A DNA stretch of 64,000 bases from an uncultured Candidatus Saccharibacteria bacterium (GCA_964426555.1 CAYRQJ010000002.1:29556-93555); one strand, 5' to 3'; positions 4,616-54,593 are shown, counted from the first letter of the stretch. Program-made: numbers and translations. Notes: generated by a model not told the origin, from the letters alone.

Positions 4616-4670
4616 ATATACAGAGTATCACAAATATATTTTTTTGTGCTATACTGCTCGCACATATGGG

Positions 4671-4789
4671 TCCCGTTAGAAGCCACGGTCACGCAAAACG
4701 GTATTACCATAGATTATTATATATGAATGAAATTATAAGACTAAATATGCAAAGTTACGGTATTAAGACTGTGACCTGCTTCTAACGGG
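4671..4789 (+). repeat. Structured leader cassette, copy A: inverted-repeat hairpin (tcccgttagaagc...gcttctaacggg) around an AT-rich core, directly abutting the mreB start codon
   Basis: Left arm 4671-4692 tcccgttagaagccacggtcac; right arm 4771-4790 gtgacctgcttctaacggga. Same architecture recurs at 49815-49932 and 53563-53679. Confidence 0.7.
4723..4785 (+). CDS. Putative leader peptide (uORF) MNEIIRLNMQSYGIKTVTCF; stop TAA lies 4 nt before the mreB ATG
   Basis: ORF embedded in copy A. Related peptides ending in CF-stop occur in the other two copies. Confidence 0.35.
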   Translation: MNEIIRLNMQSYGIKTVTCF

Positions 4790-5806
4790 ATGGGATTATT
4801 CAGAAAAAAACTAGGGATAGATTTAGGTACCGCAAATACGCTTGTTTATGTACCAGGGCGTGGAATTGTGTTGTCCGAACCTAGTGTTGTGGCTGTTTCT
4901 GAACAAGACAATAAAATAATGGCAGTTGGTAGTGAAGCTAAAGACATGATTGGTAAAACCCCAGACAGTATTATTGCTTATCGTCCAATGAGAGATGGTG
5001 TAATAGCTGATTATCGTGTTACTGAAGCCATGCTAAGGCATTATATTTCTAAAGCATTAGGTAAATGGTCTTTTGTAAAACCAGATGTATTAATTTCTGT
5101 ACCTGCTGGTATAACTTCAACTGAACGCCGTGCAGTTATAGAAGCAGCTCTAAAAGCTGGAGCTAAAAATGCTTATGTTGCCAAAGAACCAATTTTAGCG
5201 GCAATTGGTGCTGGAATACCGATTTACGAATCTCGTGGGCACATGGTGGTGGATATTGGCGGTGGTACTACAGATGTTGCGGTAATATCACTTGGTGGAA
5301 TCGTTGCATCAACATCAGTAAAATGTGCTGGAAATAAATTAGATGTTGCAATTACTGACTTTATAAAAAAATCTTTTAACTTAGCAATTGGGGACCGTAC
5401 CGCTGAACAAATTAAAATTCGCGTAGCTTCAGCTGTTCCAGTTGATGACGAAGTTACTATGCTTATAAAAGGCCGTGATTATATTACAGGCTTACCAAGG
5501 ACTGCTCAGGTTACTACTAACGAAGTATGTCGTGCAATTGATAAAGAGTTACGCATGATGATAAAAGCCATAAAAGATGTATTGCAAGATACTCCTCCTG
5601 AATTAGCTGCTGACATTATCGACCATGGAATAATAATGACAGGAGGAACATCACAACTGCGAGGGTTACCAGAATTAGTTTATCGCCGTACTGGAGTAAA
5701 AGCTCGTCTTGCCGAAGAACCAATGCTGTCAGTTGTAAAAGGTACAGGTGAAGCACTAGAACATTTAGAAGTTTACAAACGAGCATTACTTCTTAAACAA
5801 AAATAA
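4790..5806 (+). CDS. mreB: Rod shape-determining protein MreB
   Basis: KLGIDLGTANTLVYV..., DIGGGTTDVAVISLGG, actin-like ATPase motifs. Confidence 0.9.
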   Translation: MGLFRKKLGIDLGTANTLVYVPGRGIVLSEPSVVAVSEQDNKIMAVGSEAKDMIGKTPDSIIAYRPMRDGVIADYRVTEAMLRHYISKALGKWSFVKPDVLISVPAGITSTERRAVIEAALKAGAKNAYVAKEPILAAIGAGIPIYESRGHMVVDIGGGTTDVAVISLGGIVASTSVKCAGNKLDVAITDFIKKSFNLAIGDRTAEQIKIRVASAVPVDDEVTMLIKGRDYITGLPRTAQVTTNEVCRAIDKELRMMIKAIKDVLQDTPPELAADIIDHGIIMTGGTSQLRGLPELVYRRTGVKARLAEEPMLSVVKGTGEALEHLEVYKRALLLKQK

Positions 5807-36704: not shown

Positions 36705-36743
36705 CTATTAAAATTTAGTTTATAAAAATACAGAATATACTTT

Positions 36744-38441
36744 ATGAATTCCGAAACCCGAAACTGCCAAAATTGTAAATCTGACTTTGTAATAGAGCCA
36801 GATGATTTTGATTTTTATAGCAAAATTGGCGTACCAGCACCAACATGGTGCCCGGAATGCAGAATGATCCGAAGATTTAATTTTCGTAATGAAAAAATGC
36901 TATTTCGTAGACCAGACGGTTTAACCGGTCAAGACATATTTTCTACGTTTTCTCCTGAATCAGAAGTAACTACTTATGAAAACAACTACTGGTTTGGATC
37001 AGAATGGGATCCAAATATTACAGGAAAAGATTACGATTTTAATAAAACTTTCTTTACACAATTTAAAGATCTTTTAAAAGTTGCTCCAATTCCAGCAAGA
37101 TCTGTATTTAAAATGGTAAATTCTGATTATTGTAATGAGGCTAGTGAATCAAAAAATTGTTATTTATGTTTTAATACAGACTTTATAGAAGATTCTGCTT
37201 ATTTAAGGAAAATTAGACAAGTAAAGAATTCATTTGATTTATATGAATGCGAGAACTGTGAACTTAGCTATGAAGGATTAGTTTTAGATAAATGCTATAG
37301 GACATTTTATTCTTTTGGTTTAGAAAATTGTGTAGATGTATGGTTTTCAAAAAATTTACGAGGATGTACTAATTGTTTTGGTTGCGTAAATTTAGTAAAT
37401 AAATCAAATTGTTATTTTAATGAGCAATTAACCAAGGAAGAATATAATAAAAAAATTAGTGAATTTAATTCTGGGTCATATTTTGAAATTGAACAAATAT
37501 TAAAAAAATCTAAGGAATTTTGGATGAAATTCCCAGTTAAATATAACTACAGTTTAAAGAACATAAATGCAACAGGGGATAGGATATTTAATTCTAAAGA
37601 TATCAAGGATTCATACTATATAAAGAATTCTCAAAATTTAACTTACTGCCAAGATGTTTGGAATAAAAGTTCAGACTGTTACGACTATTCAGTATGGGGG
37701 GACGGAGCACAAAATGTATATGAATCAATGACATGTGGGTTAGGAATTTCAAATATAAAATTTTGTTTTAATTGTTGGGAGAATGAACAAAATTTAGAAT
37801 ATTGTGGATACTGTATTGGTTCAAACGATTGTTTTGGATGTATTGGTTTATACAAAAAACAATATTGCATATTAAATAAACAATATACAAAAGAAGAATA
37901 CTTTGAATTACTTCCCAAAATAAAACAGCATATGATGAATATGCCGTATGTTGATTCAAGTAATAGAGTTTTTAAATATGGTGAATTTTTTCCTTATGAC
38001 ATATCACCTGTAGCTTATAACGAAAGCTTAGCTCAAGATTTTTTTCCACTTAATCCTAATAAAATAATAGAAAACGGTTATCAATATAGAGAGATAAAAA
38101 ATAGAGAATTTGAAAAAACTATTTTAGCTAAAGACATACCAGACAATATAAAGGATTTAAATGAAGATTTTATTAAAGAAATTATTGAATGCGAAAACTG
38201 TACAAAAGCATTTAGAATCATACCAATTGAATTTCAATTCTACAAAAATATAAATATCCCTATTCCTAGAAAATGTCAAGATTGCAGATTTACGGAAAGA
38301 TTTAAATTTGTTACAGTTCCAAAATTTTATAATAGAAATTGTATGAATAACGATTGTAATAATACTTTTATTACGCCATACGCTCCAGATAGGCCAGAAA
38401 TAGTGTACTGTGAAAAGTGTTACCAGCAAGAAATGATTTAA
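36744..38441 (+). CDS. Cysteine-rich protein, paralog 1, with N- and C-terminal zinc-ribbon motifs and internally duplicated Cys modules
   Basis: CQNCKSDFVIEPDDFDFYSKIGVPAPTWCPEC at the N-terminus and CENCTKAFRIIPIEFQFYKNINIPIPRKCQDC near the C-terminus. Many CxxC pairs. No signal peptide. Confidence 0.6.
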   Translation: MNSETRNCQNCKSDFVIEPDDFDFYSKIGVPAPTWCPECRMIRRFNFRNEKMLFRRPDGLTGQDIFSTFSPESEVTTYENNYWFGSEWDPNITGKDYDFNKTFFTQFKDLLKVAPIPARSVFKMVNSDYCNEASESKNCYLCFNTDFIEDSAYLRKIRQVKNSFDLYECENCELSYEGLVLDKCYRTFYSFGLENCVDVWFSKNLRGCTNCFGCVNLVNKSNCYFNEQLTKEEYNKKISEFNSGSYFEIEQILKKSKEFWMKFPVKYNYSLKNINATGDRIFNSKDIKDSYYIKNSQNLTYCQDVWNKSSDCYDYSVWGDGAQNVYESMTCGLGISNIKFCFNCWENEQNLEYCGYCIGSNDCFGCIGLYKKQYCILNKQYTKEEYFELLPKIKQHMMNMPYVDSSNRVFKYGEFFPYDISPVAYNESLAQDFFPLNPNKIIENGYQYREIKNREFEKTILAKDIPDNIKDLNEDFIKEIIECENCTKAFRIIPIEFQFYKNINIPIPRKCQDCRFTERFKFVTVPKFYNRNCMNNDCNNTFITPYAPDRPEIVYCEKCYQQEMI

Positions 38442-38447
38442 TTACTT

Positions 38448-38525
38448 TATGAATTCCGAAACCCGAAACTGCCAAAACCCCAAAGAAAATCATATTTCAT
38501 TGCTTTCTACGGGGCAAACTGTAAA
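38448..38525 (+). pseudogene. Duplicated 5' fragment of the Cys-rich gene (MNSETRNCQ...) ending in an early stop
   Basis: 33 nt at 38445-38477 are identical to 36741-36773, which holds the start of paralog 1. Reading frame decays after 9 codons. Confidence 0.5.
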
Positions 38526-38533
38526 ATAAATAT

Positions 38534-40270
38534 ATGGAGAATAGAGAATGTCAGAATTGTCATAATAATTTCACGATTGAGCCGGATGATTTTGGCTTTT
38601 ACGAAAAAATTGGTGTACCAGTACCAACCTTTTGCCGAATTTGCATGAATCAAAGAAGGCTTTCTTTTCGTAATACTCATTCGTTATACAAAAGAAAAGA
38701 TTCATTTACTGGTAAAGATATAATTACAATATATTCTCCAGACAAAGATTTAACTGTAATGGCACAAAAAGATTGGTGGGGTGACAGTTGGAACGCAATG
38801 GATTATGCACAAGATTATGATTTTTCAAAACCATTTTTTACACAGTGGGATAATTTGCGTAACAATGTTCCTATGCAAAGTTTGTCTAATTCCAAAGCAG
38901 TAAATAGTGACTACTGTAATGTTGCCGAAGAAAGCTACGACTGTTATCTTGTTTCTGCATCATGGCGATGTGAAAGATCAATGTATTGTGATGCAGTAAG
39001 CCAAATTAAAGATACTATGGACTGTCATGTAGTAAACAAGTCTGACTTTTGTTATGACGATGTATTATGCCAATCATCTTACAAGCTTTTCTACAGTCAG
39101 GACTGTCATGCTTGTACAGATTCATATTTCCTATACGACTGCAGTGGTTGTACTGATTGTTTTATGTCTTCAAACTTACGTAACAAAAGTTATTGTTTTA
39201 ATAACGTTCAATTAACTAAAGAAGCTTACAAAGAAAAAATGAGTCAAATAAATTTAGGAAGTTTTGAGACTGTGCAATACTTAAAATCCGAATTTGAAAA
39301 AATGCGTTTAAATTCGTTTCATCGATTTAGTAATACATTAAATTCTGTAAATGTTACAGGTAATAACATTGAGAACGCAAAAAATTGTTATTATGCTTTT
39401 GATGCTTTTGAAGGATTAGAAGATTCTAAATATGTATTTTGGGCTGGGTACAAAGGTAAGGAATTTTTCCATTCTGGTCCAGGAGTAGGGGAAGGTGAAT
39501 TAATGTATGAATGTACTGATTGTGGTATAGGTGGTAACCGTAATTTATTTGCTAACGTAACTTATGGTTGCCAAAATATTGAATACTGTATCAACTGTCA
39601 TAATTCTTCAAATTTGTTTGGTTGTATTGGTTTGCGCAGTAAACAATATTGTATTTTCAACAAACAATATACAAAAGAAGAATGGCTGGAATTAATTCCA
39701 AAAATAAAACAACATATGAATGATATGCCATATATAGACAAAGCTGGTGTTGTTTATAAATACGGGGAATTTTTTCCAATTGAATTATCACATTTTTGTT
39801 ATAACGAAACGGTGGCTATGGACTATTATCCACTTACAAAAGAAGAATGTTTAGCCCGGGGTTATAAATGGAAAGACCCTGAAATAAAAAACTACGTGCC
39901 AACAGTTAAATCTACTGATCTACCTGACGATATTGCAATGGTAGGAGACAACATACTAGGAGATATTATTGAATGTGCTCATAAAGGTGAATGTAGCGAT
40001 AGATGTTCCACTGCATTTAAAATTACTGAAAATGAATTAAATTTTTATAAAAGATTCAACATTCCATTACCAAGACTATGTAACGGTTGCAGACATTATG
40101 AAAGATTACATAAAAGAACTCCTATGGATTTATGGCACAGACAATGTATGTGTAATAAATCAAACCATAATCACAGTAGTCAATGTCCCGTAGAATTTGA
40201 AACCGCATACGCCCCAGACAGACCAGAAATAGTGTACTGTGAAAAATGCTATCAACAAGAAGTAATATAA
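38534..40270 (+). CDS. Cysteine-rich protein, paralog 2
   Basis: CQNCHNNFTIEPDDFGFYEKIGVPVPTFCRIC N-terminus; CSTAFKITENELNFYKRFNIPLPRLCNGC C-terminus. Same C-terminal YAPDRPEIVYCEKCYQQE as paralog 1. Confidence 0.6.
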   Translation: MENRECQNCHNNFTIEPDDFGFYEKIGVPVPTFCRICMNQRRLSFRNTHSLYKRKDSFTGKDIITIYSPDKDLTVMAQKDWWGDSWNAMDYAQDYDFSKPFFTQWDNLRNNVPMQSLSNSKAVNSDYCNVAEESYDCYLVSASWRCERSMYCDAVSQIKDTMDCHVVNKSDFCYDDVLCQSSYKLFYSQDCHACTDSYFLYDCSGCTDCFMSSNLRNKSYCFNNVQLTKEAYKEKMSQINLGSFETVQYLKSEFEKMRLNSFHRFSNTLNSVNVTGNNIENAKNCYYAFDAFEGLEDSKYVFWAGYKGKEFFHSGPGVGEGELMYECTDCGIGGNRNLFANVTYGCQNIEYCINCHNSSNLFGCIGLRSKQYCIFNKQYTKEEWLELIPKIKQHMNDMPYIDKAGVVYKYGEFFPIELSHFCYNETVAMDYYPLTKEECLARGYKWKDPEIKNYVPTVKSTDLPDDIAMVGDNILGDIIECAHKGECSDRCSTAFKITENELNFYKRFNIPLPRLCNGCRHYERLHKRTPMDLWHRQCMCNKSNHNHSSQCPVEFETAYAPDRPEIVYCEKCYQQEVI

Positions 40271-49379: not shown

Positions 49380-49814
49380 TTATTCAACAATTATTTTAAA
49401 TTTTTTAGTTTTACCAAGAAGATTTATCTCTCCAACATGCTCTCCAAGATTCTTTATATGAAATGGTGTAAACATGTTTTCATTTAATTCTAAATTAGTT
49501 TCTTTAGAAAGTATCGGTAACACATCTTTTATCGTAACAGCTTTAAATAACACACCTTTATTATTTGTGCTAGTTTTTATTACAATCTCTTTACCTTCAA
49601 CTTCTTTTAAGATAGTTTCATTCTTTGCTTTTAGAAAAACGTCTTTAGTTTGATTAGACATTATGCGATCTTTTAATTTTTGTACAGCTTCAGGGGTTGC
49701 AGGAATAGCTAATTTTTGTGGAATAAGAAAATTTCTAGCATAGCCTTCGCCTATGTCTTTGATTTCATCTTTCTTTCCTTGTTTTGGAACGTCTTTTAAA
49801 AAGATAATTTTCAT
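49380..49814 (-). CDS. rplI: 50S ribosomal protein L9
   Basis: [32 protein letters not shown] is canonical L9. Confidence 0.9.
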
Positions 49815-49932
49815 CCCGTTAGAAGCAGATCGCGATCAAATCACGATTTTGCTTAATTATTCTTATAATATTATTTTTATTTAAATTCATAATTCTCCTT
49901 GTACATTAATTGCGATCGCGGCTTCTAACGGG
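49815..49932 (-). repeat. Structured leader cassette, copy B (precedes rplI)
   Basis: Arms cccgttagaagcagatcgcgatc and gcgatcgcggcttctaacggga on plus. Gene-strand end reads ttctaacgggATG. Confidence 0.7.
49819..49890 (-). CDS. Putative leader peptide (uORF) [23 protein letters not shown], with aaggag SD 5 nt upstream
   Basis: Stop TAA lies 4 nt before the rplI ATG. Confidence 0.4.
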
Positions 49933-49942
49933 ATTCATTCCT

Positions 49943-51707: not shown

Positions 51708-52883
51708 CTAGTCTGTAACTTTAACCAAAGCGTCAGTAGTATATTTATTTTTAGGATCCCATAGTAACCATGAATGTAACCCCAAATCTTCTAATGCTTT
51801 TATTTGCTCTCTTACCATGTGTGTATCATAATTTACACCATCTAATGAGAAATCTTGAAGCCATGGACGAATTTCGGTATTAGAATTTATTAATTCTCTT
51901 CTTTTTATTGCATCTTGCATTGAAAGACTGACTGTTTCGTATGGACTATTAACTGGAGATTTAATATTTTTATAACCAGCGTAAAAATGGCTTGGGTATA
52001 TCATAGGAGCAATGGCATTAGAATATAATAATAAATCTTCATAATACTGCCCTATTCCCATATCATCTTGTGTTGATACTATTTGCCCAAACACGTCTAA
52101 AGATATTGGAATATTTTTTGCAGATAATTCTGTATACATATGTTTACTAAAATTTGTAATTACTGTTTGTTTACTTTCATTTTTAGATATAGGAAAAATT
52201 TTATCTTTACTACCATCAGTTGGAAAACGAATATAATCAAAATTTATTTCATCAAATCCAATATCATATGCTTCATTAGCAAGATCAAGAATATATTTAT
52301 GGAATTCAGGACTACTAGCATCAACCCAAGATAATCCGTGCCGGTCTACCCAAAGACTTCCATTAGGATTTTGTACAGATAAATTTTTATGATTTTTAGA
52401 ATACACAGGGTCTTCAAATACAGCAATTCGCGCAATAGCATATATACCTTTACTGTGTAATTCTTCTATATACTGCGGCAAATCAACTACTCGTTTTGAT
52501 GCAGCATTTTTTCTATCTATACTGGCATTCTCTCCTGCTGGAGTAGATACAACACCTGTTGAATCTTTAAAGTCTATAACTATCGCATTTATTTCTGTAT
52601 CATCAGCTAATTTTGTTAATCTGTCTCGTATAGATTTAGTCCCAGCAACCCAAGAAGACATATAAATACCTTTTATGTGTTCAGGTTTTGCAATGTGAAT
52701 TTCTTTTTTAGTTTCTTCTTTTGTTTCATTTTTTTCTTTGTTTAAAATATTGACTTGATTAAAATCAAAAGTAAAAAAATTCTCAACAGTTTTAGAATTT
52801 GTAATAGATATATTTATTACAAACAAAGCCAAAGAAATAAATCCTAGGACAAAAACAGTAACACGTAATATTTTTCTAAGCAT
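51708..52883 (-). CDS. Putative glycoside-hydrolase-like TIM-barrel protein (COG1306/DUF4015-like)
   Basis: TM anchor, then GIYMSSWVAG...INAIVIDFKD...FDEINFDYIRFPTDG pattern of this family. Confidence 0.45.
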   Translation of the reverse strand: MLRKILRVTVFVLGFISLALFVINISITNSKTVENFFTFDFNQVNILNKEKNETKEETKKEIHIAKPEHIKGIYMSSWVAGTKSIRDRLTKLADDTEINAIVIDFKDSTGVVSTPAGENASIDRKNAASKRVVDLPQYIEELHSKGIYAIARIAVFEDPVYSKNHKNLSVQNPNGSLWVDRHGLSWVDASSPEFHKYILDLANEAYDIGFDEINFDYIRFPTDGSKDKIFPISKNESKQTVITNFSKHMYTELSAKNIPISLDVFGQIVSTQDDMGIGQYYEDLLLYSNAIAPMIYPSHFYAGYKNIKSPVNSPYETVSLSMQDAIKRRELINSNTEIRPWLQDFSLDGVNYDTHMVREQIKALEDLGLHSWLLWDPKNKYTTDALVKVTD

Positions 52884-53562
52884 AAATTATTATAGTAAAT
52901 TCACCTTTTAATTCTTTTTTATCTAATTCAATTTTTTCTAAATGCTCCACTGCAGTTAGTACACGGATTGTTTCAAACATTTTTGTAACTTCACGAGCTA
53001 CCATTATCTTTGCATCTGGGGCATTATCTTTATACCAATTTAATGTATGTAATATTCTGTGGCATGATTCATAAAATACACACGGTATTTCAGAATTTAT
53101 AGTTTTATTAAAAAAAGTCTCTCGGCCTTTTTTATGCGGAACAAACCCCATAAAAGTAAAGCTATTCCCCATCATTCCAGATACTGATACAGCAGAAATT
53201 ACCGCACTAGCTCCTGGTATTGGAACTATTTTTATTTCTTTATAATTTTCTATTATGTGGTTTATAATTAGTGACCCAGGGTCGGAAATTCCTGGTGTAC
53301 CAGCATCACTAACTAAAGCAACATCCAGCCCGTCTAAAAGTAAATTTACAATATTATCATGAGTTTTTTTACTTGCATGAGCATTATAAGTAGCAGTTTT
53401 AGTTTTTATATTATATTTTTTTGCAATTTTACCGAATTCTCTGGTATCTTCTGCATAAATGTATTGAACACTGGATAGTATCTCCACAGCACGATAAGTA
53501 ATGTCCCCCATGTTACCAATAGGTGTTGCAACTACATATAACGTACCCGGATTTTCGTTCAT
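52876..53562 (-). CDS. rsmI: 16S rRNA (cytidine1402-2'-O)-methyltransferase RsmI
   Basis: GTLYVVATPIGNMGDITYRAVEILSSVQYIYAEDTR is the tetrapyrrole-methylase fold N-terminus. Confidence 0.85.
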   Translation of the reverse strand: MNENPGTLYVVATPIGNMGDITYRAVEILSSVQYIYAEDTREFGKIAKKYNIKTKTATYNAHASKKTHDNIVNLLLDGLDVALVSDAGTPGISDPGSLIINHIIENYKEIKIVPIPGASAVISAVSVSGMMGNSFTFMGFVPHKKGRETFFNKTINSEIPCVFYESCHRILHTLNWYKDNAPDAKIMVAREVTKMFETIRVLTAVEHLEKIELDKKELKGEFTIIIYA

Positions 53563-53679
53563 CCCGTTAGAAACAGATCGCGATCAGTACGCGGTCTTGT
53601 TTATTTATTCTTTTAATGTTGATTAAATGTATTTTCATATTTATGTTTTTTATTATTGCGATCGCGGTTTCTAACGGGA
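53563..53679 (-). repeat. Structured leader cassette, copy C (precedes rsmI)
   Basis: Arms cccgttagaaacagatcgcgatc and gcgatcgcggtttctaacggga on plus. Confidence 0.7.
53567..53638 (-). CDS. Putative leader peptide (uORF) MKIHLINIKRINKQDRVLIAICF
   Basis: Stop TAA lies 4 nt before the rsmI ATG. Confidence 0.35.
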   Translation of the reverse strand: MKIHLINIKRINKQDRVLIAICF

Positions 53680-53690
53680 CAGGTATAACC

Positions 53691-54593
53691 TTAGATATTT
53701 ACTAAATTCTTTTGATGTAAAATTCTACATTCTTCTTTACAGTATGCGCTGTGTTCTTCGACACATTCCGGGCAACCTAGAAATTGTTGATGGCAAAATG
53801 GATACGCGCAGTCAAAATAATTTTCTGTTTTATCTTTACAATAATGACATATTCCAATTACAGTATGTTTATCCATATCATCAAAAGTTACAGTTTTTCT
53901 TTGGTCAAAAACATAAAGAGAACCTTTGAATTCTTTATTAGGAAATTCTTTCATATATGTAACCATTCCATTGTGAAGCTGAGCTACATCTTTAAAACCT
54001 TGAGACAGTAAAAATCCACTGGCTTTCTCACATCTCACTCCACCAGTACAAACTGTTACAACTTTTTTTTCTTTAAGATGTTCAATCTCTTTTACTCGTT
54101 CACGTAAATCTCGAAAATTCTTAAGTCCAGGAAAAACTGTTTTTGTAAATTTGCCAACTTCTAGTTCGTAATCGTTACGCATATCGACAATGTAGAATTC
54201 TTCTCCATTTTCGTACATTTTATCCAGTTCGGCTGCTTTTAGTCTTTTACCAGTTATTTTGTGTGGATCAATATCTCGATTATCATCGACTAAATGTAGT
54301 GATACAATTTCTGTGCGGACTTTTACAGAAAGTCGTGGAAAAGCATTACCAATACCAGTAGACTTTTTCCAGTCAATATTTCTAAACTTTTTTTCAGTTT
54401 CCATCCATTTAATATATTTTTCACAGTCTTCGGTTTTACCTTCAACTGTTCCATTTATGCCTTCATTTGCCACTATAATGCGCCCAGTTAACCCCAAAGC
54501 CTCGCAAGCTATCATTTGACGCTGTTTTTCCAACTCGGGTTCCTTAATCCGGACATATTTATAATATAAGAGTATTGTATATTCACTATTCAT
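53691..54593 (-). CDS. trhO: Rhodanese-domain tRNA uridine(34) hydroxylase TrhO (UPF0176) with Cys-rich C-terminal extension
   Basis: VCTGGVRCEKASGFL (rhodanese active-site Cys loop). C-terminal CHYC...CAYPFC...CPEC...C. Confidence 0.75.
   Translation of the reverse strand: MNSEYTILLYYKYVRIKEPELEKQRQMIACEALGLTGRIIVANEGINGTVEGKTEDCEKYIKWMETEKKFRNIDWKKSTGIGNAFPRLSVKVRTEIVSLHLVDDNRDIDPHKITGKRLKAAELDKMYENGEEFYIVDMRNDYELEVGKFTKTVFPGLKNFRDLRERVKEIEHLKEKKVVTVCTGGVRCEKASGFLLSQGFKDVAQLHNGMVTYMKEFPNKEFKGSLYVFDQRKTVTFDDMDKHTVIGICHYCKDKTENYFDCAYPFCHQQFLGCPECVEEHSAYCKEECRILHQKNLVNI

Follow-up and report, generated by a model that had tools for sequence, protein, structure and literature searches.

A small inverted-repeat element that rebuilds the rsmI start codon in a Saccharibacteria genome, and its probable GIY-YIG nuclease-coding relatives

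We analysed a stretch of 64,000 nucleotides from an uncultured Candidatus Saccharibacteria bacterium (GCA_964426555.1, CAYRQJ010000002.1:29556-93555), referred to here as the window, and found that the spacer between trhO and rsmI holds an inverted-repeat element, copy C, by which the start codon of rsmI is rebuilt. Copy C is very probably a mobile insertion belonging to a small-element family found across the Patescibacteria. With somewhat less confidence, we regard it as a MITE-like copy of a CPR mobile family, the autonomous form of which is probably a 270-283-bp unit with a 93-95-aa GIY-YIG ORF (UPF0213/Slx1-like). The coordinates of copy C, of two further copies in the window (A and B) and of coding relatives from other contigs are given in Table 1.

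Table 1. Position and strand of the small elements, their parts, the genes beside copy C and three coding relatives.
Feature	Coordinates	Strand	Remarks
Copy A, in front of mreB (ATG 4790-4792)	4671..4790	+	TGGG duplication at 4667-4670 and 4791-4794
Copy B, in front of rplI (ribosomal protein L9, ATG 49812-49814)	49814..49933	-	TGAA duplication at 49810-49813 and 49934-49937
Copy C, non-autonomous inverted-repeat element, 118 nt	53562..53679	-	TCCCGTTAGAAAC…GTTTCTAACGGGA on the gene strand
Copy C, 5' arm (gene strand)	53658..53679	-	13-nt terminal repeat TCCCGTTAGAAAC at 53667-53679, then inner arm CGCGATCGC
Copy C, 3' arm (gene strand)	53562..53585	-	GATCGCGATCT then GTTTCTAACGGGA; includes the in-frame TAA at 53567-53569
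Copy C, small ORF (TAA frame)	53567..53638	-	Translation MKIHLINIKRINKQDRVLIAICF*, 23 codons, without SD
rsmI, 16S rRNA 2'-O-methyltransferase	52876..53562	-	TP_methylase domain, 228 aa; host gene of copy C
trhO-like gene	53691..54593	-	300 aa; UPF0176 N-terminal domain and rhodanese
273-bp coding elements	L055 2987-3259; L074 6656-6928; L118 7520-7792		Termini CCCGTTAGAGAC…GTCTCTAACGGG

The original prediction had described a leader cassette in front of rsmI, and all its parts were present: on the plus strand the arms are cccgttagaaacagatcgcgatc (53563-53585) and gcgatcgcggtttctaacggga (53658-53679), and the TAA of the 23-codon ORF is separated from the rsmI ATG (53560-53562, minus strand) by the 4-nt spacer CGGG. 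The inverted repeat reaches one base further on each side (T…A) than had been predicted, so that copy C covers 53562-53679 and, read on the gene strand, closes with the A of the rsmI ATG. We found no SD-like purine run before the ATG of the small ORF (upstream sequence AAUAAAAAACAUAAAU), in agreement with the prediction. The element had also been said to fill the whole intergenic space; it fills nearly all of it, and 11 nt (53680-53690) remain between copy C and the trhO stop (53691-53693). The 12-mer CCCGTTAGAAAC, allowing at most one mismatch, occurred six times in the window, as three inverted pairs, versus 0.1 expected. The RNA hairpin of copy C on the gene strand had a folding energy of -31 to -33 kcal/mol (z about -5), which none of 200 shuffles equalled, and is thus far above chance.

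The proposal that the element also serves as a terminator between trhO and rsmI did not hold. On the gene strand the hairpin has no T-run behind it, a terminator scan was empty, and an intrinsic terminator was rejected; the sole terminator-like site at copy C is antisense. In Rfam searches of the whole window at gathering thresholds, only a tRNA reached its gathering score, and at permissive thresholds the best sub-threshold matches of the element were plant miRNA hairpins (E > 1). No GIY-YIG gene was found within the 64-kb window. Copy C, at 118 nt, is of MITE size (<300 bp), has no transposase gene and carries as its only ORF the 23-codon one, which is not conserved. Its terminal inverted repeats are those of a MITE as well (TCCCGTTAGAAAC and GTTTCTAACGGGA, with arms of about 22 nt), and dispersed copies (three in the window) combined with presence and absence at orthologous sites complete this picture. 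The flanks of copy C, CCTG and TGAA, show no recognisable target duplication.

Copies A and B, which the original prediction had named as companions of copy C, were real and aligned with it. The best mutual alignment was obtained when each copy was read on the strand of its downstream gene, and all three then finish with …CTG(C/T)TTCTAACGGG|ATG in front of MreB (A), ribosomal protein L9 (B) and RsmI (C). An A before the upstream duplication produces a ghost ATG 6 nt ahead of copies A and B (ATGGGT|CCCG and ATGAAT|CCCG, respectively). In copy A the ghost ATG (4666-4668) opens a 39-codon ORF that crosses the whole element to the TAA of the terminal repeat (4783-4785). In copy B the ghost ATG is at 49936-49938, and an internal SD (AAGGAG) is followed by a 23-codon ORF; the ATG after copy B is the true N-terminus of ribosomal protein L9 (MKIIFLKDV…).

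We then traced RsmI homologues to their contigs for a comparison of synteny (L240, L242, L243 and L244). The order atpD-atpC-trhO-rsmI-DUF4015-…-S41 peptidase was kept in all traced contigs. In L240, a relative with 96% identity, the trhO-rsmI gap is 128 nt and holds the identical element. The three other relatives are element-free: in L242 (71% identity) the stop of trhO and the start of rsmI share 1 nt (TAATG), and in L243 and L244 (71% and 69% identity) the gaps are 7 and 9 nt. These empty junctions indicate that the ancestral trhO-rsmI junction was tight and translationally coupled and that the element came later. Since copy C has no duplication of its own, the evidence for its insertion comes solely from these empty sites in relatives; the most likely reason for the missing duplication is that its upstream copy was later lost or mutated.

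To place the three copies in a family, one genome per GTDB species was scanned with the pattern CCCGTTAGAARC-N80-110-GYTTCTAACGGG, which returned at least 119 loci. At least 128 elements, lying in at least 119 Patescibacteria genomes, share these 12-nt ends (CCCGTTAGAARC…GYTTCTAACGGG). All but about six of the loci were labelled Patescibacteria or unclassified bacteria, and a few contigs lay in bins of other phyla. The lineages among the matches listed included Nomura-, Sacchari-, Kerfeld-, Berkel-, Levyi-, Kaiser-, Jorgensen-, Zambryski- and Vogelbacteria, among others. Searched in IMG/VR contigs as a sign of phage carriage, the motif gave 0 matches. An integron attC site, which GTTAGAA/TTCTAAC might suggest, was rejected, as the core sites stand in the opposite order to those of attC (RYYYAAC…GTTRRRY) and the elements do not lie between cassettes.

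The family sits exactly within start codons, where a staggered 4-bp target, typically A|TGAA, is duplicated. Among the matches listed, 98 of the 128 elements adjoin the ATG or GTG of an ORF with 40 codons or more (median 230), and 94 of these 98 have T…A termini. A perfect 4-bp duplication flanks 58 of the same 98 listed copies (TGAA 38, TGGA 9, TGAG 5, TGTA 2, TGCA 2, others 1 each) and is preceded by A in 54 of the 58. About 23% of listed family members have no recognisable duplication (3-4 mismatches in the 4-bp repeat), and several of these read xTTGT or xCTGT at its position. The target logo reconstructed from the matches listed is A-T-G-R-A-a with AT-rich sequence upstream, and many targets carry a TAnnnT box 6-10 nt before the ATG, which gives them a leaderless look. 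Among the T…A elements listed, 86 of 108 adjoin an ATG with an ORF of at least 100 codons; of the ATGRA sites in the same DNA, 22% are followed by such an ORF and 8% are its first ATG. Purifying selection, and not target choice, could account for much of this bias towards start codons.

Both junctions follow from the terminal bases of the element, T at its start and A at its end. On the left, the sequence becomes ATG-AAT-CCC-GTT-AGA…, in which a ghost start is fused in frame, and on the right it becomes …TTC-TAA-CGGG-ATG-AA…, which restores the start codon of the host. Asymmetry of the arms (5' GAAGC-CGC-GATCGC versus 3' GCGATC-T-GCTTC) defines the orientation of an element; relative to the host gene it was 70:1 among the matches listed, with one reverse-oriented copy (L063). 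Tandem copies occurred at six of the listed loci (L003, L033, L058, L068, L087 and L090), each placed in the start codon rebuilt by the preceding copy. The hairpins of the family have a median of 20 bp. Their arms show compensatory changes (GATCGC/GCGATC versus GGTCGC/GCGACC), and the inner part of the 5' arm as found in copy C co-varies with the 3' arm across the family. Besides MreB, L9 and RsmI, the host genes are about 90 others, unrelated to one another, in 88 other loci among the matches listed.

Longer elements with the same ends, duplication and position encode solely a GIY-YIG nuclease, the putative mobilising enzyme. In the three 273-bp elements of Table 1 the junctions are ATGAAT|…|ATGAA and one ORF fills the whole element; it reads MNPVRD…YVYVL…LYTGYTNDLRKRLREHN…RFLSLTG, and its TGA overlaps the host ATG (GGGATGA). 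The protein is a GIY-YIG domain (Pfam PF01541, E = 1e-16), with UPF0213 proteins (1zg2, 1ywl) and the structure-specific nuclease Slx1 as its nearest solved relatives by sequence. A homologue search returned at least 2296 proteins, mostly of 93-95 aa, and those with names were mostly "GIY-YIG nuclease family protein" from Patescibacteria. In the best 120 of these at least 2296 homologues, about 100 start with M-(N/S/D)-P-V-(R/K) and about 115 finish with L-x-L-T-G, indicating that both repeats are translated and that Met and two bases of codon 2 come from the host target.

A metagenome scan for the MITE-type repeat with a gap of 235-265 nt gave at least 120 contigs. Many of them hold 279-283-bp elements of the form ATGAAC|CCCGTTAGAAAC…GGTTTCTAACGGG|GTGAA, which encode MNPVRN…WYVYVLQNK…KNRLKFFFAKGF and have as their stop the TAA inside the 3' repeat; frame and stop are those of the C-F-stop of the small ORF. 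Many 279-283-bp copies end in C…G, so that GTG becomes the rebuilt host start codon in these. One T…A element (L122 12514-12796) carries the exact repeat of the small elements and reads MSPVRS…AKGF-TAA-CGGG-ATG. The nuclease ORF has no start codon of its own; it takes the ghost ATG as its start and closes inside the 3' repeat (…GF-TAA). The two nuclease protein families are about 50% identical, with invariant catalytic residues Y, Y, R, H, E and N, and many coding copies have decayed by frameshifts. In sister subfamilies, -35-like TTGACA boxes and tRNA genes appear to be exploited in the same way.

The small element of about 115 bp looks like a gene-less derivative of the 270-283-bp nuclease element. 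Both forms share the terminal 12-13 nt, the 4-bp duplication, the start-codon position and the orientation, and repeat pairs fall into two size classes of about 100-130 and 270-290 bp, with a few shrunken forms of 30-90 bp. Where small and large elements reside together, the type of terminal base (T…A or C…G) matches in about 12 contigs versus 3; in L055, L074 and L118 the repeat of the large element departs from that of the small one at two positions (GAGAC versus GAAGC). A blastn comparison of small-element loops with the interior of the nuclease gene gave 5 weak hits and no convincing homology, so that the link is based on termini, duplication, position and co-occurrence. No recurrent larger element between the same repeats was found in about 1.9 Mb of loci. 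Repeat pairs at long distance were rejected as a larger autonomous element, being chance 9-mers with one mismatch and ends that do not match.

An ordinary MITE of a conventional insertion sequence (e.g. DDE), with its transposase elsewhere and the GIY-YIG ORF as a passenger or exploiter of the ends, is unlikely but is the strongest of the alternatives. Terminal inverted repeats with a 4-bp duplication are the classic DDE footprint, GIY-YIG enzymes are not known to join DNA, and the loci were chosen by short-gap patterns, hence a long autonomous element could escape. Against this stand the lack of a recurrent longer repeat pair in the same 1.9 Mb and a 270-283-bp class that is filled by the nuclease ORF, the first and last codons of which are the repeats themselves. 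In addition, there are thousands of such nuclease ORFs with conserved catalytic residues, the terminal-base type agrees between co-resident small and large elements, and an orientation ratio of 70:1 is not expected of a DDE element.

We lean slightly towards mobilisation of both element forms by the GIY-YIG protein, and we give about equal weight to acceptance and rejection of the further claim that this protein represents a new enzymatic class of prokaryotic transposon and the smallest autonomous one (270-283 bp), which has no promoter, ribosome-binding site or start codon, borrows the ATG of its host and has the 115-bp copies as its MITEs. In the proposed scheme, the nuclease would be supplied in trans by a copy outside the window. 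It would cut repeat/flank junctions and ATGRA targets with a 4-nt stagger, moving both forms, and may act on a hairpin or cruciform formed by the repeats. Cutting followed by re-ligation through non-palindromic 4-nt overhangs would yield the 4-bp duplication, the near-absolute orientation, precise excision and the tandem arrays. This scheme foresees trouble if the donor and target tetranucleotides differ, and the reverse copy in L063 exists; a mechanism based on the hairpin or cruciform, or repair copying triggered by the nuclease, may operate instead. Stand-alone GIY-YIG nucleases are not known to catalyse strand transfer, so that established chemistry does not account for integration.

Insertion of the GIY-YIG-linked element into a host start codon in a fixed orientation would give the element the ATG of the host through the duplication and would rebuild the host ATG or GTG. 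In the case of rsmI, the insertion split the formerly tight, coupled trhO-rsmI junction. As the comparative data suggest, host expression would survive because ribosomes enter the element, either at the ghost ATG through the initiation signals of the host itself or at an internal ATG as in copy C. These ribosomes would translate a frame kept open by selection and, on their way, unwind the 20-bp stem that otherwise adjoins the host AUG; after termination at the TAA of the 3' repeat they would re-initiate at the host AUG, 4 nt further on.

The reading frames of the family bear on this point. Six bases, namely one from the host, the four of the duplication and one from the element, amount to two codons, so the ghost ATG is always in frame with CCC-GTT-AGA. 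At the right end, the first frame halts at the TAA, 4 nt ahead of the host ATG, the second halts at the TGA of ATGA if codon 2 begins with A, and the third enters the host ORF. In the loops of 94 small elements, the TAA frame contained 97 stops versus 203 expected from shuffles (0/500 as low; z = -7.9, a score that overstates independence, as the sequences are related). The host-fusion frame had an excess of stops (237 versus 198 expected, z = +3.1), and the remaining frame had 206 versus 200 expected. The depletion persisted after de-replication to 84 loops (86, 206 and 177 stops in the TAA, host-fusion and remaining frame). In 41 of 94 loops the TAA frame was fully open, versus 3 and 7 for the other frames. 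This depletion indicates that ribosomes passing through the element probably terminate 4 nt ahead of the host ATG and start again at that codon. The re-initiation point suggested for rsmI by the original prediction was supported, as a property of the family: re-initiation is a design property of the mobile element, not regulation of rsmI. On the sequence evidence, coupling of host translation to the small ORF by termination-reinitiation is modestly probable.

The open frame is entered from the ghost ATG in copy A and from an internal ATG in copies B (with SD) and C (without). Among the matches listed, an ATG-initiated ORF in the open frame was present in 62 of 98 copies and absent in 36. Read-through from the ghost ATG as the main route was rejected, since only 12 of 56 ghost-ATG copies reach the TAA of the terminal repeat and element length modulo 3 is uniform (38/30/30). 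None of these 56 copies is fused to the host protein. A conserved peptide was likewise rejected, as the amino-acid sequence varies across the family. Of the pattern that had been predicted to be shared by the three peptides, C-F-stop stood and is the translated 3' terminal repeat, TG[CT]-TTC-TAA; the N-terminal pattern is not kept across the family.

An event at the level of RNA or ribosome could also spare the host gene, through a hop from the ghost AUG to the rebuilt AUG or through excision of the hairpin (e.g. by RNase III) to leave a leaderless mRNA. A stable hairpin lies between two identical pentamers suited to take-off and landing (AUGAA…AUGAA), a TAnnnT box 6-10 nt ahead of the ATG gives many targets a leaderless appearance, and a 20-bp stem is a substrate of the RNase III type. 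Such bypass is nevertheless very unlikely: a shortage of stops in the one frame that closes 4 nt ahead of the AUG is predicted by termination-reinitiation and not by hopping or cleavage, and copy C has no upstream AUGAA.

Even less probable is a gene-specific cis-regulatory leader, in which a regulatory leader peptide with an attenuator or terminator hairpin would control rsmI, mreB and rplI. The strong hairpin, the small ORF closing 4 nt before the ATG, the ORF frame that is open across the family and a local alternative hairpin in the 3' half of copies B and C agree with it. However, the downstream genes in 88 of the loci listed are functionally unrelated, and the element is missing from the orthologous junction in three syntenic relatives; these empty sites largely refute this explanation. 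Nor does it account for duplicated target sites, for copies in tandem or for an autonomous relative with coding capacity; the peptide varies in sequence and is often missing, and there is neither a T-run terminator on the gene strand nor an Rfam match. Copy C has none of the conserved orthologous position, regulatory codons or terminator/antiterminator of a leader-attenuator. The idea of a cassette dedicated to rsmI was therefore abandoned, as the same element precedes unrelated genes and is absent in the three relatives.

A palindrome of the REP/REPIN type spread by a RAYT (IS200/IS605-like), or a structural palindrome for RNA stability, is hardly tenable: the length of about 115 nt, the long imperfect hairpin and the many copies per genome resemble it, and strict orientation fits a single-strand mechanism, but 58 of the 98 copies listed have a perfect 4-bp duplication, which REP/REPIN and IS200/IS605 do not make, there is no GTAG-type REP head, the associated gene is a GIY-YIG gene and not a Y1/HUH transposase such as the Y1 RAYT, and the elements lie in start codons and not 3' of genes.

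Among known systems, bacterial MITEs include the Correia elements of Neisseria, RUP, ERIC and Nezha, and Correia inserts at TA. The start-codon family resembles Correia-type MITEs in its length of about 100-150 bp, its terminal inverted repeats and short target duplication, and its many copies beside genes, where co-transcribed strong hairpins can change the expression of a neighbour. Correia-type MITEs are found at the level of species or genus, have loose target sites and have DDE transposases as their known partners, whereas the start-codon family spans a superphylum, is exact to the nucleotide, has one orientation and has a GIY-YIG ORF as its sole coding relative.

Its coding relatives are selfish genes of the GIY-YIG fold, as are T4 Seg proteins, I-TevI and I-BmoI. 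These homing enzymes spread by cutting DNA, with a separate DNA-binding domain, a long site and one cognate gene, and their genes are copied by homologous repair without inverted repeats or target duplications. In contrast, the 270-283-bp elements encode a bare catalytic domain of 93 aa with the residues Y, Y, R, E and N (copy C encodes none), have inverted repeats and a 4-bp duplication, and occur at hundreds of unrelated genes. In place of one cognate allele without repeats or duplication, about 90 unrelated genes are occupied among the matches listed for the small elements.

According to the part of PMC11270868 available, rRNA genes of the CPR contain non-intron insertion sequences that encode GIY-YIG proteins, and its authors state that these resemble neither group I nor group II introns and are not homing-like. 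They share the bacterial radiation and the protein family with the elements described here. The terms inverted repeats and start codons gave 0 hits each in the text of PMC11270868, and within the part available neither a repeat/duplication architecture nor a gene-less derivative was found.

Rickettsia palindromic elements (RPE) are also short palindromic selfish units that are tolerated in genes through their mode of translation. RPE keep the reading frame of the coding region that they enter and end up in the protein, whereas the start-codon family stays outside, with stops enriched in the fusion frame and the start rebuilt. Termination-reinitiation coupling takes place at overlapping or close stop and start codons, e.g. 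UAAUG or AUGA. The small elements resemble it in that an ORF ends 4 nt before the AUG and a ribosome would unwind the stem, and the ancestral trhO-rsmI TAATG follows the same principle; unlike in the usual case, the coupling ORF is brought by a mobile element and not by the upstream gene. No insertion-sequence family is known to be based on a stand-alone GIY-YIG nuclease. In the literature covered, which lay outside most subscription journals, the start-codon architecture of inverted repeats and GIY-YIG gene was not found described, and an earlier description is possible.

If the proposed scheme is true, a bare GIY-YIG domain would join the DDE, HUH, serine, tyrosine and Cas1 enzymes as an engine of transposition, and the lower size limit for an autonomous mobile element would be a new one. 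It would explain thousands of CPR annotations as "GIY-YIG nuclease family protein" and "hypothetical", as well as the puzzling GIY-YIG insertions in CPR rRNA genes. Annotation would improve, since gene callers misplace starts or call spurious small ORFs at element sites, and the first genetics of the CPR would gain an attractive tool in a nuclease that has a short target, by which orientation is defined, and a 115-bp substrate free of cargo. The genomes of the CPR are among the smallest and densest known. They would have been colonised by a parasite that occupies the start codon itself, where there is no room to spare, and that would have solved the problem of harmless insertion by rebuilding the codon and coupling the translation of the host gene to its own.

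The targets of 55 elements whose duplications are intact were reconstructed from the flanking sequence. Many target genes carried a -10-like TAnnnT box 6-10 nt 5' of the ATG and lacked an SD, and these genes therefore seem to have no leader or hardly any. An SD-like G-run, in the genes that had one, often lay just 0-2 nt from the ATG. In the loops of 94 small elements, we counted 237 stop codons in the host-fusion frame vs 198 expected (z = +3.1), as if selection acted against N-terminal extension of the host proteins.

We also inspected the copies in the window that precede rplI (copy B) and rsmI (copy C). A terminator-like score was obtained at 53575-53597 on the plus strand, antisense to rsmI, where an 8-bp local hairpin is followed by a T-run. 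Read on the gene strand, this segment, in the 3' half of copy C, gives a second, alternative hairpin of small size, and its equivalent is present in copy B. The inner arms of copy C (53573-53585 and 53658-53665) and copy B (49825-49837 and 49912-49919) contain GCGATCGC, the octamer called HIP1 in cyanobacteria. This likeness is probably a coincidence, because other family members have GCGGTC(A/G)C at the same inner-arm position, with compensating changes.

Subfamilies with other target duplications were found as well. The elements of one subfamily, with C…G ends, duplicate TTGA, followed by C(A), in genome loci L025, L067, L068, L093 and L119 and in metagenome loci L141, L146, L155 and L206; a -35-like TTGACA box is thereby rebuilt at the right junction, and these copies do not lie at start codons. 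In a separate subfamily (e.g., L150, L171, L196 and L208) the duplicated sequence is TATG and thus includes the start codon. In the distance histogram of the retrieved genome and metagenome loci, about 35 pairs of the family's terminal repeats were spaced only 30-90 bp apart, and these look like further-shrunken derivatives, almost bare hairpins.

Elsewhere in the window, a perfect 35-nt direct repeat was detected. Its first copy spans the start (ATGAATTCCGAAACCCGAAACTGCCAAAA) of ORF 36744-38441, and its second copy lies directly past the stop of this ORF, 60 nt upstream of ORF 38534-40270, a paralogue of the first ORF. Segments with 73-85% identity are common to both ORFs, and the repeat is probably a remnant of tandem duplication.

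Direct repeat in the window and GIY-YIG genes at other loci
Feature	Location	Remark
35-nt direct repeat, first copy	window 36738-36772	perfect
35-nt direct repeat, second copy	window 38443-38477	perfect
Small GIY-YIG gene	L073 3478-3738	at tRNA gene
Small GIY-YIG gene	L080 5541-5786	at tRNA gene
Small GIY-YIG gene	L081 2993-3223	at tRNA gene
GIY-YIG gene, same size	L090 2992-3222	bounded by a different 20-bp inverted repeat (CCCAGCACTTATTTTTATAA…)

The three small GIY-YIG genes at tRNA genes belong to the same clade as the element nucleases and adjoin or interrupt the tRNA genes, and the 5' part of the tRNA is present again on the other side of the GIY-YIG gene. Here the target looks to have been duplicated and then rebuilt, the same trick as that of the start-codon elements. 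The ends of the L090 unit suggest that there are additional families of GIY-YIG units with other termini.
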